A stretch of DNA of 64,000 nucleotides from IMG/VR virus record IMGVR_UViG_3300018481_000019, positions 1-64,000 of that record. One strand, written 5' to 3'. Source of the DNA: a virus. A model generated the notes under the pieces. That model made no database searches. It saw only the letters and a program-made list of their open reading frames with translations, and was not told the DNA's origin. Below, piece by piece: positions 16,193 through 36,270 of the stretch. Numbering within the stretch: position 1 is the first letter of the stretch; every line of letters starts with the position of its first letter. A program made the position numbers and the translations under genes.

Positions 16193-16461
16193 AAGACTTT
16201 TTGAATTCCAGATCGGTCGTAGAAGTAATGACCCTGGTTTTCACGTTCTTGATCGCGTTCGTGATCGTGTTCTCGGCAGTCACGGTGGTTGTTTCAGAAA
16301 TCATCAATCCAGAGGGCGACACCACTCAGGTCATTGACGGGTTGACTTCGATCATCACCGGAATCCTGGGTGCGCTACTTGGATTGCTGGCAGGCAAGTC
16401 GGAAGCGGTGAACACGAAACCCCCTCCGCCCGATATTGAAACTCATGTGGAGCCAATATGA
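16189..16461 (+). CDS. Two-TM membrane protein (holin candidate)
   Basis: Two hydrophobic segments, GTGA overlap. Confidence 0.55.
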
Positions 16462-17595: not shown

Positions 17596-18342
17596 ATGGT
17601 CATGCTTCACAACACGGTCGTAGATGCTCCCGACCTACTTGCCACGAAGCACAATCTCATGGACACGGGATTCAAGGACGTTCCCCAGGATCGGTGGGAG
17701 AACGGGATCACTTTCAACCCGCAGGGTTGTTTCAACGTATTCGCGATGGAAGTGGATTGTCCGCCCGAGCTAAAGGACGAACCCGACCAAGAGTGTCCCG
17801 ATGCCGTCACCTTCCTTCCCTTCATTGTGGAATTTGGTGTCTCGTACATGGGCCATGAGGAAGAGGGCGAGCTAGAAAGCGAGTTACGGGCCAAGACTTC
17901 CGCCGCAGTCGAAAGAGCGATTTGGAGTGGAGTCACAGTGGGAACTTCGACCAATCCCAAGCTCAGTGACGGGGATGCGCCAACTCCCACCGCTACCGCT
18001 CCCCGAGAGATGCTTGCGGTTCTGGAAGCCGAGCTTTACGAAACCGGGATGCAGGGCGGCACCATTCACATGAGCGTTTTCGACGCGGTCATGGCTGAAG
18101 GCGCAATGGATGAAGTCAACGGCAAGCTCTTTTCAAAAGTCACCGGGAACCCGGTTGTAGTCGGTAACTATCCGAAGGGATCGGCTGCAATTCACGGTGG
18201 AGAAATTGACGTGTATGCCTCTGAGGAATTCACGTTCGCTTCCTATGAGGATCGTCAACAGAATCGAATCATCTACAAGGTGGAGCGACTAGTGCTCGCC
18301 GTGTGGAACCCCTGCCATGTTTTCAAAATCGCCGGAGCATGA
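17596..18342 (+). CDS. Capsid-associated protein, likely cluster-B-type major capsid pentamer protein
   Basis: RWENGITF..GC, PFIV, AVERAIWSG, G.IH, GNPVVVG.Y, ERLVLAVW.PC pattern recalled from cluster B-like pentamer proteins. Confidence 0.6.
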   Translation: MVMLHNTVVDAPDLLATKHNLMDTGFKDVPQDRWENGITFNPQGCFNVFAMEVDCPPELKDEPDQECPDAVTFLPFIVEFGVSYMGHEEEGELESELRAKTSAAVERAIWSGVTVGTSTNPKLSDGDAPTPTATAPREMLAVLEAELYETGMQGGTIHMSVFDAVMAEGAMDEVNGKLFSKVTGNPVVVGNYPKGSAAIHGGEIDVYASEEFTFASYEDRQQNRIIYKVERLVLAVWNPCHVFKIAGA

Positions 18343-19982
18343 AGTTTTTTGACGAGAACGGTGGGCGAACACCGCCGCCGGTCAATGCTCACCGAGCGAT
18401 GCAGGGTGCAGCCAAGGTGCTCGACCTCACCAAAGCTCGGGATGAAGCCCGCCGACCGGAGGCATGGCAGACGGCGGCGTGGCAGTTCTACGACGCAATC
18501 GGTGAGCTTCACTTCGCGTTCAATCTGATCGGGCAAGTGCTCTCTCGGATTCGGCTCTATGTGGCGATAGCCGATGATCCCGACACCGCTCCGATTCGGA
18601 GCACCACCTTTGTCGAAACGCTTTCCGAAGAGCATGACGTGTGGCCCGAGAACACGGCGACGATTGTGGAGAAGGCCGACGACGTTTTGGAAGACCTGAT
18701 TATCAATTCGCCGGGGCAGGGCGGGGGCTTGCTCCGTGAACTAGGGATCAATCTCTCGGTGACGGGTGAGGGCTACTTGGTTCGCGAAAAGCAATGGTCG
18801 ATTGCCTCCACCGACGAATTGAAAAAGTCGGACACTGGCACCGGCTACGTGATTCAAAAATCCCGCAAAGCCAGTTCGGTCAACGGAGCCGAAGACAAGA
18901 CCAACCTTCCGGCGAACGCCTTTGTCGCTCGCATCTGGCGACCACACCCCCGCTACTCGGCTGAAGCCGATTCCTCCATGATCGGTGTGCTGGATTCGTG
19001 CGAACAGTTGATGCTTTTGGAACAGGCGATTCGGATGATGACACGCTCCCGCATGAATGCCGGAGTGATCTTCATTCCCGATGGATTGAGCGCCGGGATA
19101 GACGACGACAACCCAGAGAGTGTCGAAGAGGCACTAATCAACGCCGCTATCTCCCCGCTGGAAGAGGAATCGGCAGCGACATCGGTGGTGCCGCTGGTGG
19201 TCACTGGTCCGGCGGCTCTCGGCAAGGAATTGAAAAAGATCGACCTTGGCAGGCCGGTTGACGAGCAGATGGTTCAGCTAGCCGAAACCACTTTGGACCG
19301 GATTCTGCAAGGGATCGACGTTCCGAAATCGGTGGTGCAGGGCTTGTCCGATGTCAAGTTCGCCAACGCGATCATCATTGACGACAACCTCTACCGGGCG
19401 CACATCGAACCGCTGGCGCTGATGATTGTCGATGCGCTCACGACGGTCTATCTCCGTCCGGTTTTGAAAAAGCAGTTCCCCGAAGAGGTCGCGAAAGACC
19501 AGACCATCTTGAACCGTCTGATGGTTTGGTTCGATCCGAGTGCCATTGTCACCCGACCGGACAAGAGCACGGCAGCGAATGAGGGCTACGACCGAAACAT
19601 TCTTTCTGAAAAGGCGTGGCGGGTGGCTCGGGGCTTCAGCGAATACGACGCGCCGACTGAAGACGAGCTTCTCACCAAAATGGCTCTGACTCGGACCCAG
19701 ATTCCGCCCGACATCACTGCCGCTCTGATCGAACGACTAGCTCCCGATTTCTTCGCATCGCTCCGAGAGGCAGGCCAAGAGGAAGCCGGTATCCCCGACG
19801 ACATCTCGTCGCTTCTGGAAGGCGGGACGGTCAATGAAGAGGGCGTGAGTGGGATGGACGAACTCGGGGCGATGTTCCAATCCGAGACACAGCCCGCCGG
19901 TGGCCTCAGTCCAAGCGATGAAGCCATGCAGGGCGGGGAAGTTCAACCGGGAGGAAATCTCCCACCAAGGGGTAGGCCGTGA
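18339..19982 (+). CDS. Portal protein (cluster-B-like)
   Basis: WQTAAWQFYDAIGELHFA..LSRIRL, LSVTGEGYL, RIWRPHPR...ADS; ATGA overlap with the upstream gene. Confidence 0.85.
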   Translation: MKFFDENGGRTPPPVNAHRAMQGAAKVLDLTKARDEARRPEAWQTAAWQFYDAIGELHFAFNLIGQVLSRIRLYVAIADDPDTAPIRSTTFVETLSEEHDVWPENTATIVEKADDVLEDLIINSPGQGGGLLRELGINLSVTGEGYLVREKQWSIASTDELKKSDTGTGYVIQKSRKASSVNGAEDKTNLPANAFVARIWRPHPRYSAEADSSMIGVLDSCEQLMLLEQAIRMMTRSRMNAGVIFIPDGLSAGIDDDNPESVEEALINAAISPLEEESAATSVVPLVVTGPAALGKELKKIDLGRPVDEQMVQLAETTLDRILQGIDVPKSVVQGLSDVKFANAIIIDDNLYRAHIEPLALMIVDALTTVYLRPVLKKQFPEEVAKDQTILNRLMVWFDPSAIVTRPDKSTAANEGYDRNILSEKAWRVARGFSEYDAPTEDELLTKMALTRTQIPPDITAALIERLAPDFFASLREAGQEEAGIPDDISSLLEGGTVNEEGVSGMDELGAMFQSETQPAGGLSPSDEAMQGGEVQPGGNLPPRGRP

Positions 19983-22495
19983 CTGATACCAGAGTCGATC
20001 TGTATTTGGAGTGGGAGCAAGCTCTGAATGAGCCGGAGGTCGATATAGCTCTGGTTGCCAGTTTGGAAACCCAGGCTCGGACGATGGGACTCGACCTCTG
20101 GAAGATCAACAATTTCATGCTCAATTCGATGTCGGTGAAGAGCAGCGATCTTCCTTCACCGGAGGAAATGGCGACCCTGAGTCCTGAAGCCGCCGAGTTG
20201 GTGAGAGGACTCACCGCAGCGATGCCGTGGAATGAGCAGCTTCATCCCCGCGGCTGGCATGGGCAGTTCATCGAAGTGGGCGATTTCGTGGAAGTCTTCG
20301 GAAGAGCGCGCCGACACCCCGGCGGAAGAGGCCGGGTTCGGCACATCAAATCTGATGGGAAGCTAGTTGTCGAAATCGACCGTGATCCGAACGGCTCGCC
20401 GGTCCAAACTCGGGTTGTCACCGTCGATCCCGCCGGTGTCCGACCTATCGGGGTCAAGGCGGAGATTGCCAAGCCGCGTCGGTCGCTCACAGAAGTCGGC
20501 AACGATTTTCTGGATCGGGCTGCTCAGATATACGGAGAAGCTCCGATACCCGATTGGATAATGCGCTGGTACGAGAGCCTCATGCGTACCGCCATTCCCA
20601 AGGAAATGCGTGGGCCGCGTCTCTATCCCCGCACTGCCGCGGTCACTTTTGATCCCGAGCTTCACCCGCGGGGCCGGGACGGGAAGTTCATCGAATCCTT
20701 TGGCCTGGTCCGTCTCTTCGACTTCATGGATCGAAAAGGCAACCGGCACTCAGAAGGATTTGGAAAAGTCACCGATATCACACGCGATCCCCGAAGTCCA
20801 GGGAATCCCGACATCGAAGTGGAGCTTCCCGAAGGCGGTCACGTCACGGTCAAGCCGAACCAAGTTTCATCGGCTCCCGATGTCAAGGGTCGGATCAATC
20901 GTGACCTCACTGATATCGAAGCGGCGGAGGAAATAACCGACATCGAAGCGGCGGAACGACTCATTGCCGAGAGGCCGGTCGAGAGGCCCGGAGAGGTTGA
21001 CGTAGAAGAGGACATCGAATTTGCCGACACCATCTACAACACGTCTCGGGACGTAGGCAATCTCCAAGTCGGGGATGAAATCATTCTCCCCGGTGACATT
21101 CCTGGGACCATTGTCGAATTTGAATTCCCTGGTGATCGTCCTGACTCAGTCCGGGTCCACACCGACGGCGGCACCTATCACGGCAGAACCACCGACGTTC
21201 TTCCCAACTTCCGGCCTGGTGAGGAAGTCAATCCCATCGGTGAGCCGGTCATGGAAAAGCCGGGGGAAGCCGGTTCCAAGACCAATCCGATAAAGACCTC
21301 TGATCCGCTGGAAGCGGTCAAGGCGCTACGGGACGGCAAGCACGTCGAATTGGAATCGGTCGATCAAGTCTCGACCTTGCTCAATGAGCTTGCCGATATC
21401 GCGAATGAGGCCAAGGCCGCTGGTGAGGAAGCGCCCAACTACGACCTCTGCCTGGTGTCGGTGCCAGGGACCAACCTCTTCTGTGCCGAGTCCAAGGGCA
21501 TCCCGAGAATCGAAATGCCGCAACTCAGTGGCTTCCCGGTGCCGGGTTCCAAGGCCGACGATCTTCCCCGCACTGAAGAGGGCGGAGTCGATATCGGACC
21601 CGCCTTCATGGATCATCTCCGCAGCCAGGGTGTCGGGGTCACTGAAGAGCGTCGGTTGGCTTCACATCTGAAGGCTTCCCAATCCGAACTGATCGGCTCC
21701 AAGATTGCCGGGATGATGCGGGCGATGGACTCGGGGAACGAATTCGCCATTCGCAACATTCGGGAGAATCCGATCTTTGTCACCAGCGACGGTTACGTGA
21801 TTGATGGACACCATCGGTGGGCTTCAGTTGTCGGATGGGACGCACTGGAAGGCGGCTTGGACGATTACGACATGCCAGTCCGTGTAATTGATATGGACAT
21901 CATGGAAGTCCTTTCAGAAGCCAACAAGTTCGCCAACGATTTTGGAATCCCCCAAGTCTCTTCATCTGACGTGGGACCGGAAATCAAGCAAGTGAATTTG
22001 CCGTCCGCTCCGTCCGCACCAGCCACCGATAGGCCATTTGAAAATCTGAGCGATGCCGAGCTTCAGCGAACCTATGCCAACACAGTTGATCGCTTGGTGG
22101 GCGATATTGATGATCCTCAGTTGATCGAATCTCTCGGACTTGATGTCGAATATATCCGAGATGAATTTGAGGCTCGGGGTTTGTCAAGGCGCGAAGGCGG
22201 GGATCGACCATTTCGCAATTTGAGTGACGATGAACTTCAGGATGCCTACCAACGCACGGTCAATCAATTGATCGAAGATTTTGATGATCCACAATTGATG
22301 GATTCCTTGGAGCTTGATGTTAAGTATTTCCGTGAGGAATTGGAGTCTCGGGGGTTGTCACGTCAAACGGACTCAGAGTCCTTCCGGCAGAGGAACGTGG
22401 ACTTAGACCTAGCGGAGCTACGGCGACGAGCGTATGGAGACGCGGCTATGGCAACGGAATCGACAAGAGCCGCCGAGATGAATCGCCGTGAGTGA
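19979..22495 (+). CDS. Head-associated polyvalent protein 1: two HPRG modules + ParB/Srx-like domain + tandem C-terminal repeat
   Basis: WNEQLHPRGWHGQFIE and FDPELHPRGRDGKFIE; LKASQSEL...PIFVTSDGYVIDGHHRWA (ParB-like). Confidence 0.75.
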   Translation: MTDTRVDLYLEWEQALNEPEVDIALVASLETQARTMGLDLWKINNFMLNSMSVKSSDLPSPEEMATLSPEAAELVRGLTAAMPWNEQLHPRGWHGQFIEVGDFVEVFGRARRHPGGRGRVRHIKSDGKLVVEIDRDPNGSPVQTRVVTVDPAGVRPIGVKAEIAKPRRSLTEVGNDFLDRAAQIYGEAPIPDWIMRWYESLMRTAIPKEMRGPRLYPRTAAVTFDPELHPRGRDGKFIESFGLVRLFDFMDRKGNRHSEGFGKVTDITRDPRSPGNPDIEVELPEGGHVTVKPNQVSSAPDVKGRINRDLTDIEAAEEITDIEAAERLIAERPVERPGEVDVEEDIEFADTIYNTSRDVGNLQVGDEIILPGDIPGTIVEFEFPGDRPDSVRVHTDGGTYHGRTTDVLPNFRPGEEVNPIGEPVMEKPGEAGSKTNPIKTSDPLEAVKALRDGKHVELESVDQVSTLLNELADIANEAKAAGEEAPNYDLCLVSVPGTNLFCAESKGIPRIEMPQLSGFPVPGSKADDLPRTEEGGVDIGPAFMDHLRSQGVGVTEERRLASHLKASQSELIGSKIAGMMRAMDSGNEFAIRNIRENPIFVTSDGYVIDGHHRWASVVGWDALEGGLDDYDMPVRVIDMDIMEVLSEANKFANDFGIPQVSSSDVGPEIKQVNLPSAPSAPATDRPFENLSDAELQRTYANTVDRLVGDIDDPQLIESLGLDVEYIRDEFEARGLSRREGGDRPFRNLSDDELQDAYQRTVNQLIEDFDDPQLMDSLELDVKYFREELESRGLSRQTDSESFRQRNVDLDLAELRRRAYGDAAMATESTRAAEMNRRE
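22028..22363 (+). repeat. Two tandem ~58-aa repeats in the C-terminus of polyvalent protein 1
   Basis: DRPFENLSDAELQRTY...FEARGLSR and DRPFRNLSDDELQDAY...LESRGLSR. Confidence 0.9.
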
Positions 22496-25400
22496 TCTTG
22501 AACTTCACGGTCTTGAAATCTCTGAAGACAATGTTGAGAAACTTCAGGAGATGCTTGGCGATCCCGAGCGCCGCTGGTATGGACTCCGGCGGCTGAAGGG
22601 ATTCCAAACCGTCGGTTTGGTCGCCGGTTCTTATTGGAATCCCGAACTCCATCCGAGAGGACCGGACGGGAAGTTCATCGAAAAGTGGGGTTTCGTTCGC
22701 TGGCTTGTCGATGGGCTGTGGCAGCGGGGTCGTGTCGAGAACCTTCTGCCCGACAACAAGATCATTGTCGCGCCCGATGGTGGTGGCGATGAAGTCGTGC
22801 TTTCGACCAAGCAGACCTACGCCTTGCCCACTCCCAAGGGCCAGTTGGTAAATAGCCCGGACCCGACTTCGTACTCGGTTCCGACCCATTGGGAAAAGAC
22901 CGGCGAGCAGGGTGGCTCCAATCCCGGTGGCTTCTACACGTCGCAAGAGAAGATTCCGGTTCGCTCCACACCATCGGTGGAACAGATTCAGCAAGTGGTA
23001 TTCGCTGGCGGTGACACAGGGGAATTCGATGAGTACGACTGGAAGGAGATGGAGGACACTTTCAAAAAGGCGGGGGTCGGGCAACCGGATCGCTACATCG
23101 CTCACTACACCGGAGCCGACGGCAAGTCTGAAGTCCTCTTTAGAAATGGTGCTGATCCACTCACGGTGGAATGGGATGCAGCGACTAAGGCCAATGATCT
23201 GAAGCTGTGGGTCACGACCTCTGAGCTTGCTCTAGGGGAAGCTCGGGTCAAGTTGACTCGGGGCATGGACGTAGAGGAAGGGACTCAGTTTTACGTCAAG
23301 CAGACCAAGTCGGTGAATCACGCCGCCAATGAGATGCTCGCCAATGAGCTTTACAAATTGGCCGGAGTCCCGGTGCCGGACCTCTACTTTGGACAGCACC
23401 AGACAGTTGCCTCCAAGATTTTGAAAAGCTCCGATCCCGACGGCATCGCCCCTCAGATGTTGAGCAAGGTCAAGGACGATTCCGCCGTGCTCGCTCAGAT
23501 TCGACCGAATATGGCGGTTGATGCGTGGCTCGCCAATTGGGACGTAGCGGGCATGACTTACGACAACATCATCGTGGTCGATGGAATCCCCTACCGGATC
23601 GACACCGGAGGCTCGCTGGAATACCGAGCGCAGGGCGGACCCAAGGGCGGAGCGTTCGGGCATGAAGTAGGGGAATTGAAATCCTATCTCAACACCAGTC
23701 TGAATCCTTCTGCCTCCACCGTGTTCGCCGGGATCACTCCCGACGAACTCCGCTCGGGAGCCGAGAAGGTGGCAGCGATCAGTCCGCGAAAGATCAAGGA
23801 TATGGTCCGCTCCGCCGGGATATCTGATGCCGTCGGCAACACACTGGTCGCCCGTCGAGAAAGCATCATCGAACAAGTCGGGGTCCACGACCCCTACAAG
23901 ATTTACGTTCCGCCGCAATTGACCAAAGTGACAAAGGGAACCGTTCCCGAAGAGAAGTTTTGGAATCCCATTGACGACCAGTGGCAACCGGGCATCCTGC
24001 TCAAATCCTCCGCTGATGCCCGCCGCCAAGTGGAAGGGCAGATCATCTCGCTCTACGGGAAGGGCGATCCCGAGCTTGCTCCAATCAAGGGCGACTTGAT
24101 TGTCGTCGGGTCGCAAGACGCCTTCACCGGCATGTTCCGTGTCACCGACGACAGCGAGTCGATGCTAAAGGCGGTGTCGGCCCTTGACCCGGACAACAAG
24201 ACGGAATACGAGCTTTATACCCCCGACGTTCGGATCGTTTCCGAAACCGATCCGGCGGTAGAAGAGGTCCGGTCGGCCTACACGCAGCATCGTGTGGCGA
24301 CGGTCAATGACCAACTGAAGCTCCACACGCTTGACTCGGTTTTCGATGTCGCCGTGCAGAACAAGGACGTGTCCAAGCCCCCGGTCTATCTCGTCCCGCA
24401 TACCTACGGGAGCGAAGGCGACGCGATGTTCAAGATGCAGCCAGGGCAATTCCTCTTCCACGGTTACGAAGACTTTGAGGGCGAGCACAAGGTTGTGTAC
24501 CGGATCAATGGGACTACCGCTGATTCCATCTCCATGACCAATGTGATTGATGGGAAGGAACGCATTCTCAGTTGGGACGAGTGGGTCGCGGACTATGAGC
24601 CGTCTCAGTGGAGCATCCCCGACGACTACACGCAAGATCAGACTCTTGCCCTCTTGCAGCGGGACAAGCTGATTTCGACAGAGGACAACCTAGAAGCGAT
24701 TTCCCTTGAATACCCATACGCCCTTGATGAATACGGGGAGGCCGTCGATATTTCGGTGAATCCCGATCTACCGGGTCCGTCGGCAAGCCTGGAAGAACTC
24801 GGCGCGGTTCCCACCATGACCAACGACTACGGGATTCACAACGATATTCCCACCGGGGAAGTCGTTCCTTTGAACGACCTCTTGAATCTAGTGACTGAAT
24901 CACTTGATATGGATTCGATCAATGCGATGCCGGATGGAGTGCTAAATGTCGAAACTCCGCTCCATGAATTCTTGGGTCAATCGGTGATTATCGGCAATCC
25001 AGATGCCAAAAGAATCAACCTTGGCTACACAGAGGATTACCGGGGATTGTTCTACGTGGACGGGATTGAGGTTCGGAAACGTGCCTACGGTCACGGCACT
25101 GTTATCACCACGACGATGTCGATGATCGCTCCCAATGGGCAGCGGCAGTATCTTCGGGTGGAGGAAGGCAAGACCTTTGGCGAGCAGGTAATCACTATCG
25201 CTACCGCTCTTGATGCGTCGATTCCCTCACCACCACCGTCACTTCGGGAGAATGGCGACATCGTCCTAGAGAAACAGATCATTGGGCGGTGGGAAAAGGG
25301 CGGGACGTGGCGGGCCGAGATTTTCCCCGAGCACTCCCTGACTGGAACAACCAAAATCGTTCAGGCGTATGCCAAATACGAGATGCGTGACCGGATTGTC

Positions 25401-28400: not shown

Positions 28401-28898
28401 TATCTGAAGCCCAGGCAGACCGAGAGCGCTTATGGCGGCGTGCTGGTTTACAGCGCCGATGCGATCAACCGATCCCTGGACATCTACAACAACTACTCCG
28501 ATGGGTTCGGGGCGCGGGCCGATGTGAACCGGCTTCTGACTTCCGGCGGCGGTCACGAAACGATGATGAAGGACAAGATCGAAGTCGAGCAACTTGCCTA
28601 TTACATGGCGGACGGGCCGAGTACCCGAACAGACATCATTGATCGGGTGAAGGCCAAGGGCGTGACTCATATCAACGGTCGTCCCATAGAGGAAATCGTC
28701 GTGGTCAATGCTCCGGTGGCAATCGGCTCGCCCGAGTTTCAAAAGTTCGGGACCACGTTGGGAACGGAAGTGACGGTGGCTCAGATTCTTGGAATCAAGA
28801 CCGGGGCCAAACTCCCCTCCGAGACACCAGAGCCGTCGGAGCCAGCGGATTTGGAAGAGGTCGTGATTCCTCCCGGCGGGATAGAGGGACCGTTTTGA
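22488..28898 (+). CDS. Head-associated polyvalent protein 2 (2136 aa): HPRG module + HipA/PI3K-like kinase + further uncharacterised domains
   Basis: WNPELHPRGPDGKFIE; GGSNPGG loop, YVK..ANEMLANELY, DAWLANWD....DN, IDTGGSL kinase motifs. Confidence 0.75.
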   Translation: MSDLELHGLEISEDNVEKLQEMLGDPERRWYGLRRLKGFQTVGLVAGSYWNPELHPRGPDGKFIEKWGFVRWLVDGLWQRGRVENLLPDNKIIVAPDGGGDEVVLSTKQTYALPTPKGQLVNSPDPTSYSVPTHWEKTGEQGGSNPGGFYTSQEKIPVRSTPSVEQIQQVVFAGGDTGEFDEYDWKEMEDTFKKAGVGQPDRYIAHYTGADGKSEVLFRNGADPLTVEWDAATKANDLKLWVTTSELALGEARVKLTRGMDVEEGTQFYVKQTKSVNHAANEMLANELYKLAGVPVPDLYFGQHQTVASKILKSSDPDGIAPQMLSKVKDDSAVLAQIRPNMAVDAWLANWDVAGMTYDNIIVVDGIPYRIDTGGSLEYRAQGGPKGGAFGHEVGELKSYLNTSLNPSASTVFAGITPDELRSGAEKVAAISPRKIKDMVRSAGISDAVGNTLVARRESIIEQVGVHDPYKIYVPPQLTKVTKGTVPEEKFWNPIDDQWQPGILLKSSADARRQVEGQIISLYGKGDPELAPIKGDLIVVGSQDAFTGMFRVTDDSESMLKAVSALDPDNKTEYELYTPDVRIVSETDPAVEEVRSAYTQHRVATVNDQLKLHTLDSVFDVAVQNKDVSKPPVYLVPHTYGSEGDAMFKMQPGQFLFHGYEDFEGEHKVVYRINGTTADSISMTNVIDGKERILSWDEWVADYEPSQWSIPDDYTQDQTLALLQRDKLISTEDNLEAISLEYPYALDEYGEAVDISVNPDLPGPSASLEELGAVPTMTNDYGIHNDIPTGEVVPLNDLLNLVTESLDMDSINAMPDGVLNVETPLHEFLGQSVIIGNPDAKRINLGYTEDYRGLFYVDGIEVRKRAYGHGTVITTTMSMIAPNGQRQYLRVEEGKTFGEQVITIATALDASIPSPPPSLRENGDIVLEKQIIGRWEKGGTWRAEIFPEHSLTGTTKIVQAYAKYEMRDRIVKHVIPLLQPTELVPKSGKTEGSKDAILSKAVFKRREDFPAGSWVIAPDGFTGVVGVTDSGIGSNASFLSRFPSAVRVTNPVDGKTRIINANLLLPTEAPEVTETESDLVSLSEVKAMTDSGAPFFPLKLKDGTDPRIGQYVRAFGPGEKITEGTINWVGPPDGKQAKVAPLLSIVTADGKIVRKTLSKTVLLKDVEGAPTPPIAESGLPEDTKAAVEAVIGFTPEATSDIGMKYVAPDGKTLAQPQWEKDVWLGKSPKRTLTKDGYAPRAGMRVQTNKGEALVILGFEDVYKRPNNVQTLNLTTGQTRTRVVSALTVDHAAELGDVEYGSLDYVRGITLTSEPDATHPSFTEHLPNGTIIYKATASKNYYTGEAYRKIDEYFFITETGQIQKMGGGGHLSQQQAMHWIAELSQMGQMSKVAVIDENSPNFGGYTNAVEKNPAAFVVYSPSELTHEEALSGHFLELTGVSVKGAEIAAPIPKDNLVSVLPKPADAIDMTEDELVPDPPPITGTVGAVNDKPGILPVKSVTEAGLEILSQKLETSPGSGSEYAFGDQEYIEDMLVRAQIAKDVKSGNEYVEFHFRMLESKAEATSDRLVTAGKNVTYGKWQERPEPVRGSHLEIGDAISVRVSSVSDALKPSNGTAPNARVIADPVLLGADSKGVPIYRVTVASADGTTGAMDVQERALPSIKVYDWNPAAVATMDTSATAKLTSKAITNGWREVGDLGYDFHGKYASKSPVVSMDETGAKLIDGDSIHMGATGDQGKPGARTQGRRLERTFPDGSYVRYNAIPSSISGTSHGGNGGSPGEARRFNEAGQVTIRVPVSLEYDPEAFQASVSRAMEAVGIPPDKQGPPTDEHLAVFALNKLFKTHAADFAHRSSPVTQPSTNDPKLIEVLARMDKELMPILGRPVTLDDISIHVFSDGRFTALLSAEVASAISKRQGNQYYQHSGVSTTDKIVELLAGPNPGLMGGTERYSMGLFFKGASTERDMTKGSGNRVYLKPRQTESAYGGVLVYSADAINRSLDIYNNYSDGFGARADVNRLLTSGGGHETMMKDKIEVEQLAYYMADGPSTRTDIIDRVKAKGVTHINGRPIEEIVVVNAPVAIGSPEFQKFGTTLGTEVTVAQILGIKTGAKLPSETPEPSEPADLEEVVIPPGGIEGPF

Positions 28899-29698
28899 GA
28901 ACCAATCTGAAGACCTTCCCCTTTCACCCGGCGACTTTGGAAATGCACTCCAAGGACGGCAGGGTTCAGTTTGAAATCCAGCGCAATTTCAACTGGTGGG
29001 AAGAGAAGGGGCCGGATTACTCCCACTTCGCAGAGCGTGATCTTGGTGGCGATGGGATCAAGAACATCGAATTCAACCGAATTCTCAATGACCAGCATGG
29101 ATTCTTTCAGGCAACAACACCCGATGGAATACGGGTGATTGTCCGACCCTATGACGAATACGATCCGGTGAGAGCGGACATAAGCCGGATTCCGTGGCCC
29201 AAGTCCGTTATCCAAGACGTGATGATGGGAGAAGCAGAAATCATGCTCAACGCACTCGTAGACGACAACGGAGATGTGGCGACTCTGATGCTGGACACGC
29301 CGTCTACGTCATACCTCCGCTACACCGGAGCCTGGTATCTGATGCCCGATGTCGAAGCGATCAGCGACTACGACATCGTCATGGTCGAAGACGAAGCCCT
29401 GGATATGTACGACCCTGCCGATCAGACCGGCAAGTCGGTGAAGATCACTTCGATGCCGATAGCGCCGGAGGACGACTTCCGGGTTCAAGTCCGCTACTCG
29501 GGCGAGCCGGATGCCGATGCTCTGAAACCACTAGTCACGGAAACCATCGTGGCATCGCTCAGTATCCCCACCATCGCCAGTGCTCGCGATCTTCCTGCCG
29601 CCATTGAGTTCGCCCAAACGCACCCCGACTTCCAGTGGTATGTCGAGCGTCGTGCTCGGTCGCTTGGAATCGAAGAGGGTTTCCCTTGGAATGACTAG
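28895..29698 (+). CDS. Head-region hypothetical protein
   Basis: TTGA overlap; C-terminal IASARDLPAAI...YVERRARSLG resembles a small helical domain of actinophage head proteins. Confidence 0.6.
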   Translation: MRTNLKTFPFHPATLEMHSKDGRVQFEIQRNFNWWEEKGPDYSHFAERDLGGDGIKNIEFNRILNDQHGFFQATTPDGIRVIVRPYDEYDPVRADISRIPWPKSVIQDVMMGEAEIMLNALVDDNGDVATLMLDTPSTSYLRYTGAWYLMPDVEAISDYDIVMVEDEALDMYDPADQTGKSVKITSMPIAPEDDFRVQVRYSGEPDADALKPLVTETIVASLSIPTIASARDLPAAIEFAQTHPDFQWYVERRARSLGIEEGFPWND

Positions 29699-31691
29699 CC
29701 AGCGCACCTTTCCCCGGCCTCCGGCATTGGAGACTTCGCATCTCAGCGAAGCTCCGGTGCTGGACGAACTAGAGCTTGTCGCTTGGCATGACACCGATGC
29801 GGCGACGTGGTCGCGTCGAGTTTTGAAAAACGAGCAGCGCAAGGTTTTGAAGCCAATGCTCGGTGACAGTCCCAAGCTCCCCCAAGGATTGCTCGCCGCA
29901 GGAACCGACTCTCTGGTGATTGGACTAACCCGAGATGGGTTGCTGTGGGAGGACGGGAAGTGGGTCGAGAATGACGAGATGTGGGGAGCCACCACTCCCC
30001 TCTCAGCCGATGATGTGGCATTCGTCGCCCGAGCCTTCACTGAGGGCTGCGATTCGGTGTTGTTCCGGCCCTACTTCCCGTTGGCCTGGATTCCAGAAGA
30101 GCCGGTGGTTGCCGCTGCGCCGGAGAAGCCCGCGGCTCCGTCGCCTTCCAAGCTCCCGCCGGGAGCCAAGCTGGTTGCCATTGTGGACGATCTGGACAAG
30201 AGCGCCGTTTTGGAATTGATTGCTCTCGCGCCGGGGCCGGTACTGCTCCGCCGTCACGACGGCAATTGGTTTGAGGACGACGACTGGCTGATTCCACTGA
30301 GGTCGATTGATCCACCACCCATCGTGGTTTTGGAAAAGGACGTGGGCGACGACGTAATCAAGCAAGTCGATGAATCCACGAAGGGTATGGACTTTGTACC
30401 CAAGGTGGTCAAGTCGAAGAAACTTCGTTCGTCGGCCTTCATGGAATTGGACGACACTCTCGGGCAGATCGAAGAGCAGTTGATTCTCCGAGCCGCCGTC
30501 ACCCCGGAAGGGATCAAGGGAACCGAAAAGCTGAAGCGGTACTGGACCGTGGGCGAAGGTGGACTTTTGAAAATCCGGTGGGGAACACCGGGATCGTGGA
30601 CCCGTTGCCAGCGGCATCTCCGCAAATACATCGGGCCGAGAGCCGCCGGTTACTGCACCAATCTCTGTCAGCGAATGGGCGGGTTCGGGGTGGCTTGCCA
30701 CGTCGGGGTGCGGGGCGATGCCGCTCCACTGATCGGAGTTGGCACCTACACCCCTGGCATGTTCAAGCTGAAGCCAGAGAAGGGTGGCAGGACTCCCTAC
30801 GCCCGAGAGGACCGAAAGACCACCCGGACTCTCAGCGATGCCGAGATAGAGCAGCGTCGGGAAGCGGCACGGAAATCGGCGGAGGCTCGTCGCAAATCAA
30901 CTTCCGAGAGCCGGTCTGAGGCATGGCGGAGTTCGTCCTTGTCTCAGAAGGTGAAAATGGCTGCGGCGATAGAACTCGCTGCCATTCGCCGCAAGGAAGA
31001 ACTGCAATCTCTAATCAGAGGCACCGACGATCCGCTGAAGCGAGCGCAGTATCAGGGCGAGCTTGACGACATCAACAACATGCTCTCAGCCAAGGACGAA
31101 TGGCTCCGCAATCAGAGATACGACGAACTAAAATTGGCGGACAAGCAGATTGATGATGTTCAGAATCAGTTGGATCGGGTGCGGGAGGGTTTCAAAAGGC
31201 AGACCGATTCGCTCACCGAGCGGAGGAACGCTCTTGATCTTCAGATCGAAGCTGCCCGCAATGCGTCCAGCAAGGGCCGGGAATCCGCCCAAGCTGCCAA
31301 TGAGCGGGAGCGAGCGGCAGTCGGTGATCTTCGCTCCGAAGCTGCATCACTGCGAGAGCGGGCGGCGAACACCACTTCTGAGGTTCAGCGAATTCAGTTG
31401 ATGGATCAGGCGCGACGGCTCAGTGACGAAGCCGGGGTGAAGGAAGAGGGCATCAAGCGGTACTCGGATGCCAATGCCCAAACCATCGACAAGCTGGTGG
31501 CGCAGAGACGCGGGATCAGCACCCAGATCAGTGACATCAATTCCCAACGGACAAGGAAGGTCGCTGATATGAATGTCAATTTGAAAAAATTGCGGGACAA
31601 GCGCTCGGGCCTCACCAAGCAGTATCAGGATGCCTCCGAGTACCTACGCCGGAGTCGATCTACCGGAGCACCGGGGCAGTTCTTCATATGA
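29691..31691 (+). CDS. Head-region protein with LKRYW..GEG..KIRWG.PG domain and long coiled coil
   Basis: KLKRYWTVGEGGLLKIRWGTPGSWTRCQRHLRKY...GYC.NL motif recalled from cluster-B-like head maturation proteins; C-terminal coiled coil of about 280 aa. Confidence 0.65.
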   Translation: MTSQRTFPRPPALETSHLSEAPVLDELELVAWHDTDAATWSRRVLKNEQRKVLKPMLGDSPKLPQGLLAAGTDSLVIGLTRDGLLWEDGKWVENDEMWGATTPLSADDVAFVARAFTEGCDSVLFRPYFPLAWIPEEPVVAAAPEKPAAPSPSKLPPGAKLVAIVDDLDKSAVLELIALAPGPVLLRRHDGNWFEDDDWLIPLRSIDPPPIVVLEKDVGDDVIKQVDESTKGMDFVPKVVKSKKLRSSAFMELDDTLGQIEEQLILRAAVTPEGIKGTEKLKRYWTVGEGGLLKIRWGTPGSWTRCQRHLRKYIGPRAAGYCTNLCQRMGGFGVACHVGVRGDAAPLIGVGTYTPGMFKLKPEKGGRTPYAREDRKTTRTLSDAEIEQRREAARKSAEARRKSTSESRSEAWRSSSLSQKVKMAAAIELAAIRRKEELQSLIRGTDDPLKRAQYQGELDDINNMLSAKDEWLRNQRYDELKLADKQIDDVQNQLDRVREGFKRQTDSLTERRNALDLQIEAARNASSKGRESAQAANERERAAVGDLRSEAASLRERAANTTSEVQRIQLMDQARRLSDEAGVKEEGIKRYSDANAQTIDKLVAQRRGISTQISDINSQRTRKVADMNVNLKKLRDKRSGLTKQYQDASEYLRRSRSTGAPGQFFI

Positions 31692-32128
31692 GCTATTGGC
31701 TGCGTTTTGAAAACCACCGTGAGCCGGTCGAAGTTGCCAGTGGATACGGTTTCAAGGCACCGAAATCGTGGGGCCGGATGCTCCGAATGGAGGAAGCAGA
31801 TGATGTATCTGGTGGCGATTGCTGCCCCGATTTGGAAAACGATCCCCTGGCGGACCTAGAGCGCCAGCTTCAGGATGAAGAATCCAAGCTCTCGGAGTTG
31901 ATTGGCTCTACCGCCGAGATTCAAAAGGAAATCGGGAGGTACGACATCAGGATTCTCACTGCCAGTGGGAAGGACCGGCGGGCCATGCTCGCCAGCGCAC
32001 GGTTTTTGAAAGTCCAACAATTGCACGACATGGAAGCCCGGAACCAGACAGAGATAGACCGTCAGCGAGCAAGGGTCGCCAGTTTGCGAAGGCTACGATC
32101 CGAGAAGAGAAAGGACTTGTCGAAATGA
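31688..32128 (+). CDS. Coiled-coil hypothetical protein
   Basis: ATGA overlaps on both sides; heptad-like C-terminal half. Confidence 0.6.
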   Translation: MSYWLRFENHREPVEVASGYGFKAPKSWGRMLRMEEADDVSGGDCCPDLENDPLADLERQLQDEESKLSELIGSTAEIQKEIGRYDIRILTASGKDRRAMLASARFLKVQQLHDMEARNQTEIDRQRARVASLRRLRSEKRKDLSK

Positions 32129-33042
32129 CCGATCTAGCTGGCGAACTTCTGCCAGACGGTGTGTATGAGGGCTATGCCGAATGGGGCATGGTGCGGGAGG
32201 ACATCGGCGCGATTCTGGCGGCGGGGTTCCCGGTCAAGCCACCGAAGCAGTGGTTTGAGAATCCCAATTTCATGCGTCTCTCGCCATTGACCGTGGAAGG
32301 CTCGGGACAAGTGATGGGCCACGTCGCATCGTGGAAGCAGTCGCACATCGGCATGAGTGGATCGGTGCGCGCCCCCAAGTCGAAGTCGAAGTACGCCTTT
32401 TTTAAGACCGGCGTGGTGGAGACGGACGATGGTTCGTTCCAAGACGTAGGGCAGATCACTCTCACCGGGGGTCACGCCCCATTGGACGCGACCACCGCCG
32501 ATGCCGTAGCCCACTACGACAACACCGACTCCGCCGTGATGGACGTGAATGTCGGTGAGGATCGGTTCGGAATCTGGGTTGCCGGAGCGCTCCGTCCCAA
32601 CGTTGACGAGACGAAGCTGCGAACGATTCGGGCTTCCTCCGTCTCCGGCGACTGGCGACCGATCAACGGTGGCTTGGAACTAGTCGCGGTGTGCGCGGTC
32701 AACGTTCCCGGCATTCCGATCCCCCGAGCCAAGATCGCATCGGGTGTCCCGATTGCCCTGGTTGCCGCCGGAGTGGAGCCGTTGGTCGATCTGGCTCTGG
32801 AAGAGAATCTCGGCCTCAGCATTGATGAAGAGATTCGGGCGGGGCTGAATGAGGTCTACGACCGTCTGGAAGCCATTGAGTCCAGGCCGGACATCACCAT
32901 GACCGCCGCAGAGCGACGTGACGCTATCTCTCAGGCGATCAATGACACCGCCACGGACAGAGAGGCTCGGGCCGAGTCACTCCGTAGGAACGTCCACAGG
33001 GACGCTTACGCCGCTTCTCTGCGGAGCCGAGTCCATTCGTGA
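32125..33042 (+). CDS. Capsid maturation protease (cluster-B-type)
   Basis: PP..WF.NP, GHVASW...HIG, AHYDNT, GED.FGIWVAGALRP, SGDWR...LELVAV.AVNVPG.P motifs. Confidence 0.8.
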   Translation: MTDLAGELLPDGVYEGYAEWGMVREDIGAILAAGFPVKPPKQWFENPNFMRLSPLTVEGSGQVMGHVASWKQSHIGMSGSVRAPKSKSKYAFFKTGVVETDDGSFQDVGQITLTGGHAPLDATTADAVAHYDNTDSAVMDVNVGEDRFGIWVAGALRPNVDETKLRTIRASSVSGDWRPINGGLELVAVCAVNVPGIPIPRAKIASGVPIALVAAGVEPLVDLALEENLGLSIDEEIRAGLNEVYDRLEAIESRPDITMTAAERRDAISQAINDTATDREARAESLRRNVHRDAYAASLRSRVHS

Positions 33043-35996
33043 CCCAGAATCGGGCCAGGGCGGTGCCAAGCACCGCTCTGGTCGCTGCTCGCTCATGGGA
33101 AGCCGAGCTTCACCCGCGGGGCCGGGATGGGAAGTTCATCGAAAAGCTCGGCATGGTCAAGCTCTTCGACTTCGTCCATCCCCGCTCTAAGGAACAGATT
33201 TCAGAATCGACCGGCGTAGTCAAGAACATCTTTGGCGGCGACCGCATCATGGTGGAACTACCCGATGGGGTGACGGTCCCGGTCAAGTCCAACCAGATCG
33301 AATCGCTTGGCGAGAAGGCACGACTCACCCTGTATCGGGGTGAAGGCGATCTGGACAATCCGTCGTACTACACGCCGGAGTCAGGGGAAGCAGGGGGATG
33401 GTGGACGAGCGACCGTGATGCGGCAGACCGATACGCCAAGGGTGTTCCTGGGGGGAAGGTCTACGAAATCGAAGTCGAAGGGTCAGAGGTAGAGCCAAGG
33501 GGTGCTCATTACTTCATCTCTGACCCGACGGTTCGATCAAGGCGACGATTGACCGACTCCGGCGCTCTTTACCAAAACGAGAATTTCCTAGACACCGTCA
33601 AGCAAGTCGATGCCGCCGAATTCCACAAGGGATTCGCTGAAGCTCGCCAGGGTCGGTACGGAGCCTTCCTTAGTGATTTCGATGAAAGCCACTTCGCTCA
33701 GGAAAATGTCGATGTCTACTCGGCGTTCGACGGGAAGGTGGGTGCGGCTCTCACTCGCCATGAGGACGGTCGAGTTGAAATCGGTTCCCTCTATGCCTTG
33801 GAGGGAGCGCCACCTAAAGCCGGGATCGACCTACTCCGATATTTACTGGACGAAAAAGGGGTCAATTGGCTCAACAACTTCGATGGGCCACTGACCGATA
33901 TGTACGAAGCGAACGGGTTCAAGGTCGATACCTCTGATCCCTGGAACGAAGAGTATGCGCCGGATGGATGGGACTATGAGCGGTTTGACAATCCCGCATA
34001 CATTACAATGTCCCGTAAAATGGAAAGACCTGTAAGGGGAGCAGCAAGTGGTAGAAGCATTGACACCGGAACAACTGGAACAGATTCGGACGAGTCTCTA
34101 CGCCAAGACCGAAGCACGGCTCGGCAAGGAATGGGTCGCGTCCCACCAAGAGTTGATGGACGAGCAGTTTCAGATGATGCAGGACTACGGGCTTCTGGAC
34201 GAAGTCCTCTTGGAGCCGACGCTCTAACAGCATCGGTCAGAGTGGAGGCGATGCGCGCCTTCGTTCACAATCCGCACACGGTCTTGGTGTCTTTCACCGC
34301 CGCTGACTGGAACCCCGACCTTCACCCGAGAGGTCACGACGGCAAGTTCATTGAGACGCTTGGCCTGATTCATCTCATTGATATGGCGGGCTTTCGCCAC
34401 GGTCAGAGGGGCGACAAGCGGGTCCAGGGTCAAGTCCAAGAAATCATCCCCGACCCTGACGACCCCGGCAACCCGATCATTCGGGTGAAAATGACCGATC
34501 CCCGATGGGACGCTTCTGCATTCGGGGAGACATTCGATGCTCGGAGCTACCAAGTCTCGGCTCGGGAACCGGGCAAAGCGACGATTCCAAAAGAGCCAGT
34601 TGTCGATCTAGCGGGCGAACTGTTGCCTGACGAGCCTCCGTCAGTTACCCCCATAGCGACCGACCTTGTCCCGTCGATCACCGAATCCGACATCGGGGTT
34701 GGAATGGCTCTGGCTCCAATGGCGAAGCCTGGTGGGTGGGACGGGTTGTCGCCAGCGGCAAAGCAATCGTGGATCACGGATCAGATGCAGGCGGACCTCA
34801 GTGCGTTTCGGGGAGCGCCCACAGTTTTCAATTTGGAAAGCACTGATCCTGAAGTCGCATTCAATCTCGCCAACCGATACCGGGAGCTAACCGGCATCGA
34901 CACGCCGACCGCGCTGTGGGTCGATGGGGTTGTCACCAACGCATCGGCTCATTTGATGAACGACGAATTGGTCAAGCCGACTTCAGCGATTGCCGTGGCC
35001 CATCCCGGCACCAAGCACCCTGGCGGCATTGGCCCGATCACGAACCGCAAGGCCATAGTTTTGAATCAAGTTCACTTCCAAGACGACAAGACGTGGGCCA
35101 AAGAGAAGGCCATGAGTTCTGGCGGGTCGTTTCCCTGGTCGGTCGGCTCTACCCAAGGCGATTACACGGCGACGATGGTGCATGAGTTCGGACACCACCG
35201 GCAGTTCCGGTATCTGGCGGAGACGATGCTGGAAGCTGGTCAGCCGTTTTCAAAAGTGAGACATGCCGACGGTTTCGGCCTCATGCCGGATTCTTCTAAT
35301 TGGCCCGAAGTCCAGGCGGCCCGGTATGAGATTCAAAAACTGGCTCCCTCTCAGTACGGGTTGAGCAAGTCTTCAGAGGCATTCGCTGAAGTGTGGGCCG
35401 GAGTTGTTACCGGCTACGTCCCGATTTCACCTGAATTGCAATCTGCGTGGGACTCATGGCATCTCGGAATGGACATTCCCGGTCAGATGCCGCCGACTCG
35501 GTACACCCCCGACGAGCTTGTCGATTATGGATCACTCGCTCCCGAAGAGCTAGATGCGTATTGGGCTGAGGCTTCTGCCCTTTTGGAATTGCCGGGAATG
35601 CGTGAGCACTACCCCCAAACCGCTGCGCTCTACGACTCATGGGCCGCTGGAACGGTCTACGCCGAGTCCGACTTCGGGGAGCCGATTGAGTTCCCGAGCG
35701 AGAGCTTGGAACTTGAACCAGCGTTGATGCAGGCTCGGTCGGTTCAGGAAATCAAGGCCACCAATTTTTCGGAAGTCGAATCCTTCATACGAGAAGCAGA
35801 GAAGACACAGGGCGGCGCGTGGTCGTTCTTCCCGACATTCGGCTCGGTAGACATAGTGCGAGCAGCAACACCGTCTCAAATTCCTGATGATTATTACAGC
35901 CCATCAAGTAACCGAATTTTCTACAAGGGCAAGTGGCAGACTTTCACCCCGGCAGCAATTATCCGAGAGCAGAACAGAGGGATGGGGTCCGATTGA
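33039..35996 (+). CDS. Head-associated polyvalent protein 3: HPRG module + ART-like + GNAT + HPRG module + zincin metallopeptidase
   Basis: WEAELHPRGRDGKFIE; LYRG...WWTSD...A..YA...VYEIE; IGSLYA...G..LL...FDG.L..MYEANGF; WNPDLHPRGHDGKFIE; HEFGH...YG...SEAFAE. Confidence 0.78.
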   Translation: MTQNRARAVPSTALVAARSWEAELHPRGRDGKFIEKLGMVKLFDFVHPRSKEQISESTGVVKNIFGGDRIMVELPDGVTVPVKSNQIESLGEKARLTLYRGEGDLDNPSYYTPESGEAGGWWTSDRDAADRYAKGVPGGKVYEIEVEGSEVEPRGAHYFISDPTVRSRRRLTDSGALYQNENFLDTVKQVDAAEFHKGFAEARQGRYGAFLSDFDESHFAQENVDVYSAFDGKVGAALTRHEDGRVEIGSLYALEGAPPKAGIDLLRYLLDEKGVNWLNNFDGPLTDMYEANGFKVDTSDPWNEEYAPDGWDYERFDNPAYITMSRKMERPVRGAASGRSIDTGTTGTDSDESLRQDRSTARQGMGRVPPRVDGRAVSDDAGLRASGRSPLGADALTASVRVEAMRAFVHNPHTVLVSFTAADWNPDLHPRGHDGKFIETLGLIHLIDMAGFRHGQRGDKRVQGQVQEIIPDPDDPGNPIIRVKMTDPRWDASAFGETFDARSYQVSAREPGKATIPKEPVVDLAGELLPDEPPSVTPIATDLVPSITESDIGVGMALAPMAKPGGWDGLSPAAKQSWITDQMQADLSAFRGAPTVFNLESTDPEVAFNLANRYRELTGIDTPTALWVDGVVTNASAHLMNDELVKPTSAIAVAHPGTKHPGGIGPITNRKAIVLNQVHFQDDKTWAKEKAMSSGGSFPWSVGSTQGDYTATMVHEFGHHRQFRYLAETMLEAGQPFSKVRHADGFGLMPDSSNWPEVQAARYEIQKLAPSQYGLSKSSEAFAEVWAGVVTGYVPISPELQSAWDSWHLGMDIPGQMPPTRYTPDELVDYGSLAPEELDAYWAEASALLELPGMREHYPQTAALYDSWAAGTVYAESDFGEPIEFPSESLELEPALMQARSVQEIKATNFSEVESFIREAEKTQGGAWSFFPTFGSVDIVRAATPSQIPDDYYSPSSNRIFYKGKWQTFTPAAIIREQNRGMGSD
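34048..34227 (+). CDS. Nested +1-frame 59-aa gene inside polyvalent protein 3 (candidate immunity or partner of the GNAT domain)
   Basis: AAGGGGAG RBS then GTG; MVEALTPEQLEQIRTSLYAKTEARLGKEWVASHQELMDEQFQMMQDYGLLDEVLLEPTL*; the host frame here reads as an R/G/S-rich linker. Confidence 0.65.
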   Translation: MVEALTPEQLEQIRTSLYAKTEARLGKEWVASHQELMDEQFQMMQDYGLLDEVLLEPTL

Positions 35997-35997
35997 T

Positions 35998-36270
35998 ATG
36001 ACCAGTGTGCTCACGCCGATGTGTTACTCCTGCCTTCATCTCCGCACCACGCTCCCCGACGGCAAGCTCCCCTGCGCTGCGTTTCCCTATGGAATCCCTG
36101 ATGAAATTCTGGACGGGCAAACCGACCATCGACTGCCGGTGGAGGGCGACGACGGGATTGTCTTTGAGCAAGACCCGGACCTTCCCGAGCCTCCGTTCGA
36201 TTCCTACCCGTTCGCACAGGCGGTTGTCTCGTCGCTTAGGATGCGAGTGCATGGACGGCCAGACCTTTGA
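35998..36270 (+). CDS. Small Cys-rich protein, CxxCxH...CxAFPxGIP family (candidate immunity protein)
   Basis: CYSCLH...CAAFPYGIPDEILDG..DH..P..GD.GIVFE pattern, recalled as lying downstream of phage head-associated (MuF/ART) toxin genes. Confidence 0.7.
   Translation: MTSVLTPMCYSCLHLRTTLPDGKLPCAAFPYGIPDEILDGQTDHRLPVEGDDGIVFEQDPDLPEPPFDSYPFAQAVVSSLRMRVHGRPDL

Follow-up and report, generated by a model that had tools for sequence, protein, structure and literature searches.

A portable HPRG-barrel domain precedes diverse enzyme payloads in the head operons of actinophage-like viruses: a candidate handle for capsid cargo

Three large proteins encoded around the head maturation protease of an uncultured, actinophage-like virus carry between them five copies of a module of ~90 residues, which consists of an HPRG motif followed by a small beta-barrel and which we refer to as the HPRG module. 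The window analysed here comprises the first 64 kb (64,000 nucleotides) of a single 93,817-bp virus contig (IMG/VR record IMGVR_UViG_3300018481_000019; GC content ~57%), whose distant relatives, by portal, terminase, protease and major capsid genes, are the Gordonia phages GodonK and Forza. We find that the HPRG module is a real, previously uncharacterised and portable protein domain, standing in front of different enzyme payloads in giant proteins of head operons, much as an earlier note on this DNA, made from the letters alone, had supposed. The reading that we prefer, and to which we grant somewhat better than even chances, is that the module constitutes a shared handle of capsid cargo: polyproteins and head-protein fusions would enter the procapsid, the prohead protease would cut at an L-T-A-[AG] stretch, and the enzymes would leave with the DNA. 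In our reading, the proteins that share this handle are virion cargo in a clade of actinophages akin to GodonK and Forza.

Scanning all six frames of the window, we found HPRG..G[KQ]FIE exactly five times, always in frame within the proteins P0001, P0002 and P0003 (histidine codons at nucleotides 20243, 20663, 22650, 33111 and 34323; Table 1). These are the five places at which the earlier note had reported the longer form [WF]xxxLHPRGxxG[KQ]FIE, whose coordinates correctly mark the W/F, five residues further upstream. Behind each motif comes a strand-rich segment of 60-80 residues that terminates in one of the tetrapeptides listed in Table 1, in agreement with the beta-rich segment and K[AG]x[IL] ending described in the note, and copy 1 leads through a short spacer of ~55 residues into copy 2, likewise as described. 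Twelve columns are invariant across the five window copies, and a local profile hidden Markov model (HMM) places modules at residues 80-162 and 220-308 of P0001 and 16-97 and 420-518 of P0003. The three module genes do lie downstream of the portal and on either side of the maturation protease, as matches to phrog_776 and phrog_18402 confirm, with P0001 and P0002 encoded upstream and P0003 downstream of the protease.

Of 1.84 billion cluster representatives, 337 matched a profile built on the five copies at E<=1e-3 and 117 at E<=1e-10; since most matches span profile positions 1-89, motif and barrel travel together. A barrel-only profile built from 156 non-window modules, from which the motif columns and all window sequences had been removed, detected all five window barrels over their whole length (87.5, 76.2, 36.4, 31.7 and 25.3 bits). 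The modules are therefore alike beyond the 15-residue motif, a point on which the proposal of the earlier note depended. An AlphaFold2 model of copy 2, based on an alignment of 35 sequences, reached a mean predicted local distance difference test (pLDDT) score of 86, with values of 94-96 in the core and an ordered HPRG motif (85-94), and displays a five-stranded small barrel (strands 32-39, 45-57, 67-71, 77-80 and 85-87). Structure searches with this model yielded KOW4 of DSIF (Z 8.5; against Spt5 KOW4, 5oho_B, the root-mean-square deviation was 2.4 over 62 residues), Tudor domains (Z 7-8), the KOW domain of NusG and PhnA-like barrels. Model and matches together assign the module to the fold class of SH3/KOW/Tudor small barrels, so that the earlier guess of an SH3/KOW-like module stands at the level of the fold class; the structure searches placed it in no named small-barrel family.

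None of the four libraries searched covers the module. Searches of Pfam, NCBIfam and PHROGs with P0001-P0003 returned no model for it, and neither the Pfam KOW (PF00467) nor the SH3 models matched the window modules; among 106 homologues, there was one match to KOW (5.4e-4) and one to SH3_16 (8.6e-4). The nearest structures in BFVD belong to uncharacterised proteins of the Gordonia phages Sixama and GodonK. A tblastn search of 50,697 phage records with one 88-residue module gave nothing at E<=1e-3, which reflects a failure of sensitivity, as GodonK gp67 and Forza gp78 carry the module; copy 5 together with the zincin region found no match in phage records by tblastn. Literature searches for an HPRG-type motif, including the KHPRD and WDESKHPR forms, led to unrelated papers only.

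The signature occurs in two forms. Full modules (171 instances) follow the consensus A-A-x-[WF]-[ND]-[PE]-D-L-HPRG-[RKH]-DG-[KR]-FIE-x-x-G-x-V ... KARL, in which H, P, R, G, D, G, F and I are conserved at 87-100%, and are composed of a flexible L-T-A-[AG] stretch, a knot with the sequence [WF]-[ND]-[PE]-x-L-H-P-R-G-x-D-G-[KR]-F-I-E, and a five-stranded barrel ending in K-A-R-L. The motif alone (76 instances) reads W-D-E-x-x-HPR-[GD]-E-x-G-[RK]-[FW] and is followed by Gly/Ser/Ala linkers. Giant proteins as long as 7334 residues contain 6-16 such bare motifs, placed between ART-PolyVal-like units, and in one lineage that shares the portal family (L057-L059) the kinase protein behind the portal has a bare motif where the full module would be. 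Accordingly, the motif looks like the functional core of the module and the barrel like an added platform.

In 100 of 136 representative proteins, the first module begins no further than 75 residues from the N-terminus; two to three copies are found in 29 of the 136, and the residues that follow the last module number 446 in the median. Among 106 module proteins, Pfam revealed conflict and enzyme families: Zeta_toxin (21), AAA_33 (12) and ART-PolyVal (4), and further several GNAT families, PARP, WGR, ParBc_2, Peptidase_Mx and Phage_Mu_F. This payload set is the repertoire of phage polyvalent proteins (PMC5512222), and as in these, at least two unrelated conflict or enzymatic domains are combined per large polypeptide.

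For the payload behind copy 3, a model of the isolated region matched, by fold comparison (VIA), H. pylori CtkA with a Z-score of 12.6, HipA with 11.3 and PI3K gamma with 9.6; the E-values in Foldseek were weak (2e-3 to 8e-3). K147, E158, N226, D228, N236 and D248 are invariant in 20 homologues, D248-x-G250 representing the D-x-G, so that the catalytic Lys and Glu, the D..N loop and the D-x-G are all present in this predicted HipA/CtkA/PI3K-like kinase. Module and kinase part of P0002 form the post-portal core that is conserved in relatives; tblastn traced them to 20 distinct loci, GodonK gp67 and Forza gp78 among them. Homologues of the kinase-like domain (23265-23927) with 32-37% identity also reside inside large proteins, some annotated 'ADP-ribosyltransferase', of unrelated ~90-kb phages of Pseudomonas (Dolphis, Jeremy, Touem01), Yersinia, Aeromonas, Morganella and E. 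coli; the one in Dolphis is part of a 1222-residue protein that does not adjoin annotated head genes. Among the payload identities put forward in the earlier note, the kinase is thus upheld by its fold, and the other three are candidate identities: the ParB-like call in P0001 is based on a DGHHR string and a match to phrog_2859 (function unknown) at residues 489-654, the ART and GNAT calls in P0003 on language-model leads from the ESM Atlas (GNAT, ART-PolyVal), and the zincin call in P0003 on an HEFGHH string and a sub-threshold match to Peptidase_M10. Pfam matches on homologous module proteins agree with these three calls; when four payload regions were compared by sequence with the PDB, no match beyond TPR-like noise emerged.

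In 50 IMG/VR loci, local profiles built on the head proteins of the window revealed that gene order is conserved: orf248, portal, module protein(s), orf267, orf703, orf146, protease, module protein, orf153. Of the module open reading frames (ORFs), ~24 begin right behind a portal gene and 6 right behind the protease, and ~10 more lie within 10 kb downstream of the portal; GodonK gp67 and Forza gp78, both annotated as hypothetical, follow the portal immediately and contain one module each. The tie of the homologues to head operons, without which the earlier proposal would have lost its footing, is thus close, extending to both portal and protease genes, and the module proteins are encoded, like polyvalent proteins, among virion and packaging genes together with portal and terminase. 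In other phages and in the genome itself, the module is moreover joined to head proteins within one polypeptide, namely to the prohead protease (P0025, P0035, P0135 and P0062), to a MuF-like domain (P0121, P0144 and the genome's own ORF 90969-93533) and to the C-terminal piece or a homologue of orf267 (six proteins: P0055, P0056, P0058, P0082, P0128 and P0146). In all three kinds of fusion, the module sits downstream of the head protein. As prohead proteases and MuF are components of the procapsid, we regard these fusions as the strongest indirect evidence for module proteins inside heads; the literature searched contained no virion proteomics of any carrier phage. A pattern scan of 185,579 prokaryotic species, one genome each, found just two loci, both in metagenome bins, versus the 50 loci in IMG/VR, indicating that the module belongs to viruses that integrate rarely or never.

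A candidate cleavage site accompanies the module. The pattern [ILVMF][TVLAIS]A[AGS], typically L-T-A-A/G, occurs no more than 11 residues before the W/F in 117 of 163 full modules (72%), compared to 3.5% in control windows of the same proteins, and coincides with the low-confidence N-terminal part of the AlphaFold2 model. A similar boundary exists in the capsid itself: in seven homologues of the major capsid protein, I-[LTV]-A-G-[GA] closes a variable acidic or proline-rich N-terminal arm, and the conserved fold sets in at precisely this point; in HK97-type phages, the prohead protease removes the arm at this boundary. The N-terminal arm of the virus's own major capsid protein comprises ~240 residues, a conserved acidic helix and then a long Pro/Glu/Ala-rich stretch of low complexity. 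In the fused forms, the protease tail ...ASLRxRVH... continues via ...PLTAG... into HPRG, a connection that in the window is split by the 4-nucleotide stop/start overlap at 33039-33042; the overlapping genes are in different frames here and form a single polypeptide in other phages. Taken together, these sequence patterns support, without proving, that the prohead protease cuts just upstream of each module.

Module and payload behave as a cassette. The block of copy 4 and the ART/GNAT region of P0003 is missing from four relatives (L007, L008, L013 and L014), and because in the close relatives L013 and L014 (78% identity) the post-protease protein starts at the equivalent of copy 5, either the window phage gained this block or its relatives lost it. 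The P0001 homologue in L002 contains one module rather than two, and its blocks are reordered. At the nucleotide level, copies 2 and 4 have 41 nucleotides in common across the motif, with a single mismatch, while all other pairs differ in their codons.

On this basis, we propose the following course of events. Enzymes destined for delivery, among them the kinase, ART, GNAT, nuclease, peptidase and zeta toxin, would be made late, either as polyproteins of the portal-protease operon or fused to MuF, the protease or another head protein. The module or its bare motif would dock them onto a common partner inside the procapsid, where the prohead protease would cut at L-T-A-[AG] upstream of each module, releasing separate cargos that each start with an HPRG module. 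At infection, these cargos would exit with the DNA and work on their targets in the host. The evidence is explained at least as well by a module that is both tag and processing junction as by a pure loading tag. Going further, one may consider the HPRG motif, with or without the barrel, a general, transferable address label for capsids, which some conserved component of the head would recognise and which L-T-A-[AG] would accompany as a protease code; this is a tentative extension, with the chances rather against it.

Several observations weigh against the cargo-handle proposal. The domain family, its fold class, its position before payloads, its linkage to head operons, the head fusions and the gain or loss of cassettes are matters of observation, while packaging, a docking partner, cleavage and ejection are what we infer. 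In the fusions with protease or MuF, the head protein could accomplish targeting alone, which would make the module dispensable as a loading tag. L-T-A-[AG] is mostly absent before bare motifs, where it precedes 5 of 75, and although the related pattern [ILVMF][LVT]A[AG] is 3.3-fold denser in head proteins than in other proteins (2.4 versus 0.7 per 1000 residues), this enrichment is only suggestive because the pattern was picked post hoc, with these proteins already in view. Small barrels are a generic fold, and no match stands out: the best E-value in Foldseek was 0.016, and Z-scores of 7-8 are common background. A sixth module, in the MuF-like ORF described below, is marginal, with an E-value of 0.024 genome-wide and 7.6 bits with the barrel-only profile. 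Finally, the net charge of the module ranges from -4 to +7, so that a simple DNA-anchoring role is not indicated, and the DNA anchor was dropped as a candidate on these grounds.

A narrower explanation holds that motif and L-T-A-[AG] are a processing junction and nothing else, an element for the prohead protease or for autoprocessing, with the leaders, MuF, the protease and orf267 responsible for targeting and the barrel merely presenting the site. The bare motifs that recur 6-16 times between the domains of giant proteins, followed by Gly/Ser/Ala linkers, would be expected of such an element, as would the modules at the junctions behind protease, MuF and orf267, and the enrichment of L-T-A-[AG] before modules together with its resemblance to the arm/fold boundary of the major capsid protein. 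We still judge this explanation unlikely: in 100 of 136 proteins, the module lies so close to the N-terminus, at 75 residues or less, that a cut would take off no more than a short leader; a conserved, folded barrel of ~70 residues exceeds the needs of a cleavage site; the invariant residues are located in the structured knot (pLDDT 85-94) and not in the flexible stretch; and the short-motif class mostly does without L-T-A-[AG].

The resemblance of the barrel to the KOW domains of Spt5 and NusG, to ribosomal eS4 and to Tudor domains, which are its best fold matches, raises another possibility, namely that the barrel acts after delivery and recruits each enzyme to one common hub of the host, for instance the ribosome, RNA polymerase or nucleic acid, without any role in loading. 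Some members of the HipA-like kinase, GNAT, ART and zeta toxin families attack translation or envelope synthesis, which would suit such a host-targeting adaptor, as would the weak KOW match of one homologue (5.4e-4). It leaves unexplained, however, why the module is fused behind the prohead protease and MuF and is strictly linked to head operons, and a common hub would be surprising for payloads so unlike each other, a ParB-like nuclease and a zincin among them; considering also that the charge of the module is not conserved and that the fold matches are at background level, we hold this possibility to be improbable. Very remote, in our view, is the idea that the module has no biochemical role of its own and is retained mainly as homologous sequence for the shuffling of effector cassettes between genes and phages. 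The 41 nucleotides common to copies 2 and 4 with one mismatch, the copy-4 and ART/GNAT block that is present here and absent in close relatives, and the single module and reordered blocks in the L002 homologue of P0001 would all be in line with it. However, the other copies encode the same residues by different codons, which shows that selection acts on the protein; 12 columns are invariant in the window copies and the eight signature residues are conserved at 87-100% over 171 instances; and amino-acid identity within the family is 30-50%, too low for homologous recombination at most sites.

The relationship of the module to MuF deserves separate mention, as the earlier note had suggested that the module replaces MuF, which it could not recognise here. 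Neither statement holds for the genome. PF04233 (Phage_Mu_F) has no match in P0001-P0003 at E<=0.1, and the only MuF-like region is that of ORF 90969-93533, outside the window (3.9e-5, 24.8 bits, below the Pfam cut-off of 29.6 bits); it is accompanied by the sixth module, WQPRDSIGRWVEVGD...KGRL, in which QPR replaces HPR, and by a Zeta_toxin domain (3.1e-15). The cultured relative Forza possesses a separate MuF-like protein, gp75, and other viruses fuse MuF to the module, on account of which the replacement of MuF was rejected. The ORF is situated at the contig end; on a circularly permuted genome, this would place it immediately ahead of the terminase gene. A literature search for MuF, zeta toxin and phage capsid in combination found no paper.

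Table 1. Positions of the HPRG modules, their payload and the surrounding head genes. Coordinates refer to the window unless given as genome coordinates.
Feature	Coordinates	Strand	Description
Copy 1	20204..20482	+	LTAA..WNEQLHPRGWHGQFIE and barrel, terminates in KAEI; module HMM 64 bits, E 8e-19; barrel-only HMM 25.3 bits
Copy 2	20633..20905	+	RTAA..FDPELHPRGRDGKFIE and barrel, terminates in KGRI; module HMM 106 bits; copy used for folding
Copy 3	22614..22865	+	LVAG..WNPELHPRGPDGKFIE and barrel, terminates in KGQL; module HMM 59.5 bits; barrel-only HMM 31.7 bits
Copy 4	33072..33332	+	LVAA..WEAELHPRGRDGKFIE and barrel, terminates in KARL; module HMM 70 bits; barrel-only HMM 36.4 bits
Copy 5	34290..34598	+	FTAA..WNPDLHPRGHDGKFIE and barrel, terminates in KATI, then DLAGELLPD; module HMM 109 bits; barrel-only HMM 76.2 bits
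Kinase-like payload behind copy 3	22860..23987	+	AlphaFold2 pLDDT 75.6 (P0002 residues 125-500)
Terminase gene	688-2136
Portal gene	18303..19982	+	phrog_776, 2.5e-88; Pfam Phage_portal, 6.3e-6; directly upstream of the first module gene
838-residue protein gene P0001	19979..22495	+	N-terminal helical leader, copy 1, spacer of ~55 residues, copy 2, ParB-like (DGHHR) region, duplicated C-terminal helical segment
2136-residue protein gene P0002	22488..28898	+	Short leader, copy 3, HipA/CtkA/PI3K-like predicted kinase domain (residues ~125-470), ~1600 residues without assignment
orf267, conserved head-operon gene (267 residues)	28895..29698	+	Position conserved by synteny
orf703, conserved 703-residue head-operon protein	29580..31691	+	True start probably near 29695; long C-terminal coiled coil; phrog_6439 at residues 308-369
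Prohead (head maturation) protease gene	32125..33042	+	phrog_18402, 8.9e-57; stop overlaps start of the 985-residue gene by 4 nucleotides
985-residue protein gene P0003	33039..35996	+	Copy 4, ART-like and GNAT-like block, R/G/S-rich linker, copy 5, HExxH metallopeptidase-like region
Major capsid protein gene	genome 71588-73609 (L060:88-2109)	-	Outside the window
854-residue protein ORF	genome 90969-93533 (L016:2970-5534)		Outside the window; MuF-like region, diverged module, Zeta_toxin

The remaining genes of the portal-protease block complete this picture. The portal is 40% identical to that of Gordonia phage GodonK (tblastn). In orf703, a Cys/Trp-rich block (RYWTVGEGG...GYCTNLCQRMGG; phrog_6439) is followed by ~300 residues of coiled coil, which makes it a candidate scaffolding protein; its N-terminal part is joined to the prohead protease in three IMG/VR loci (L005, L043 and L049). 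Between the tail block and the portal, positions 14985-17060 encode a tail-fibre-like product carrying a Phage Tail Collar domain as well as a collagen-repeat protein, which puts the tail genes ahead of the portal-protease block, an unusual order; the capsid and major tail genes are distant from this block and on the opposite strand. The peptide DLAGELLPD occurs twice in the window, at residues 3-11 of the protease (32131-32157) and directly after copy 5 (34599-34625). The relative L013 has DLSKELLPE at the matching place after its module, and at about 88-90 kb of the genome lie two small ORFs whose products terminate in LADELLP and LSAELLP. DLAGELLPD is possibly another short peptide for docking or cleavage.

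Proteins injected with phage DNA decide the first minutes of an infection, including the countering of host defences and host takeover, and to our knowledge, the route by which they enter the capsid is largely unknown outside T4, P1, N4 and a few other phages. The HPRG module marks candidate cargo in hundreds of proteins of uncultured phages and in the cultured Gordonia phages GodonK, Forza and Sixama, and L-T-A-[AG] offers a candidate cleavage motif for a poorly studied family of prohead proteases. If the tag were sufficient for loading, injected effectors could be found from sequence alone. Were it a general address label in addition, anything behind the motif would be packed, cut free and injected, which would explain both the interchangeable arsenals of injected enzymes in a large phage clade and the motif-only polyproteins with up to 16 units, and would provide a tool for loading chosen proteins into heads.

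The internal proteins of phage T4 and its Alt protein bear an N-terminal capsid targeting sequence that is removed by the prohead protease gp21, and this cargo is ejected with the DNA. The module would resemble this sequence as an N-terminal element serving as a prohead address and coupled, as we propose, to cleavage by the head protease. Yet the T4 tag is an unfolded peptide of ~10 residues that is removed, whereas the module is folded, spans ~90 residues and would stay on the cargo if the cut were made at L-T-A-[AG]. There is also no sequence similarity between the two, and the module does not have the form of a T4-type targeting sequence, a short peptide ending in the cleavage motif L/I-x-E, in place of which we find L-T-A-[AG]. 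Small barrels of the KOW/Tudor/SH3 type (Spt5 KOW4, 5oho; NusG KOW, 2xhc) have five strands and the same size as the barrel of the module, but sequence identity is ~14%, the HPRG knot has no counterpart in them, and the scores are in the range of generic resemblance.

Closer in architecture are the phage polyvalent proteins described by Iyer, Burroughs, Anand, de Souza and Aravind (2017, J Bacteriol), which are predicted to be packaged and injected and for which processing by peptidases has been proposed (PMC5512222). The proteins described here are likewise very large, multidomain and encoded among virion genes, and they combine predicted conflict domains such as ART-PolyVal, a zincin peptidase and a ParB-like nuclease. 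In contrast to that description, the text of which mentions no HPR motif, SH3 or KOW, a single repeated module precedes each payload here and also occurs alone at N-termini, and no Pfam LPD or other model fits it. They also differ from effectors fused to MuF or portal (PMC5512222) in that MuF is a separate gene and does not head the three window proteins. With the MuF polymorphic toxins of temperate phages (Jamet et al. 2017, BMC Biol, PMC5576092), they have in common a conserved N-terminal, head-associated domain and a variable C-terminal toxin, and the layout of ORF 90969-93533, a MuF-like region followed by a zeta toxin, is exactly that of such a toxin (PMC5576092). Here, however, the conserved part is a small barrel of ~90 residues with an HPRG motif that is repeated within proteins, for which the text of PMC5576092 describes no equivalent motif, linker or cleavage site, and the carriers, being almost absent from bacterial genomes, are not typical prophages.

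The Dar antirestriction system of phage P1 provides a further parallel. According to one account (PMC12810830), DarA and Hdf are bound to the inner capsid surface, and DarB and DdrB are packaged, the latter having ParB-like and zincin domains (PMC5512222); proteins that counter host defence thus enter the heads during morphogenesis and are released on infection, as we propose for the module cargo. Unlike the module system, P1 relies on dedicated adaptors and an ordered incorporation, and the abstract of that account mentions no common, repeated tag domain (PMC12810830); our analysis found no homology of the Dar proteins to the module. That phages encode polyvalent, head-associated effectors which are injected is therefore already known (PMC5512222, PMC5576092), while the HPRG module with its motif, its position before each payload and the paired L-T-A-[AG] appear to be undescribed in the libraries and literature searched.

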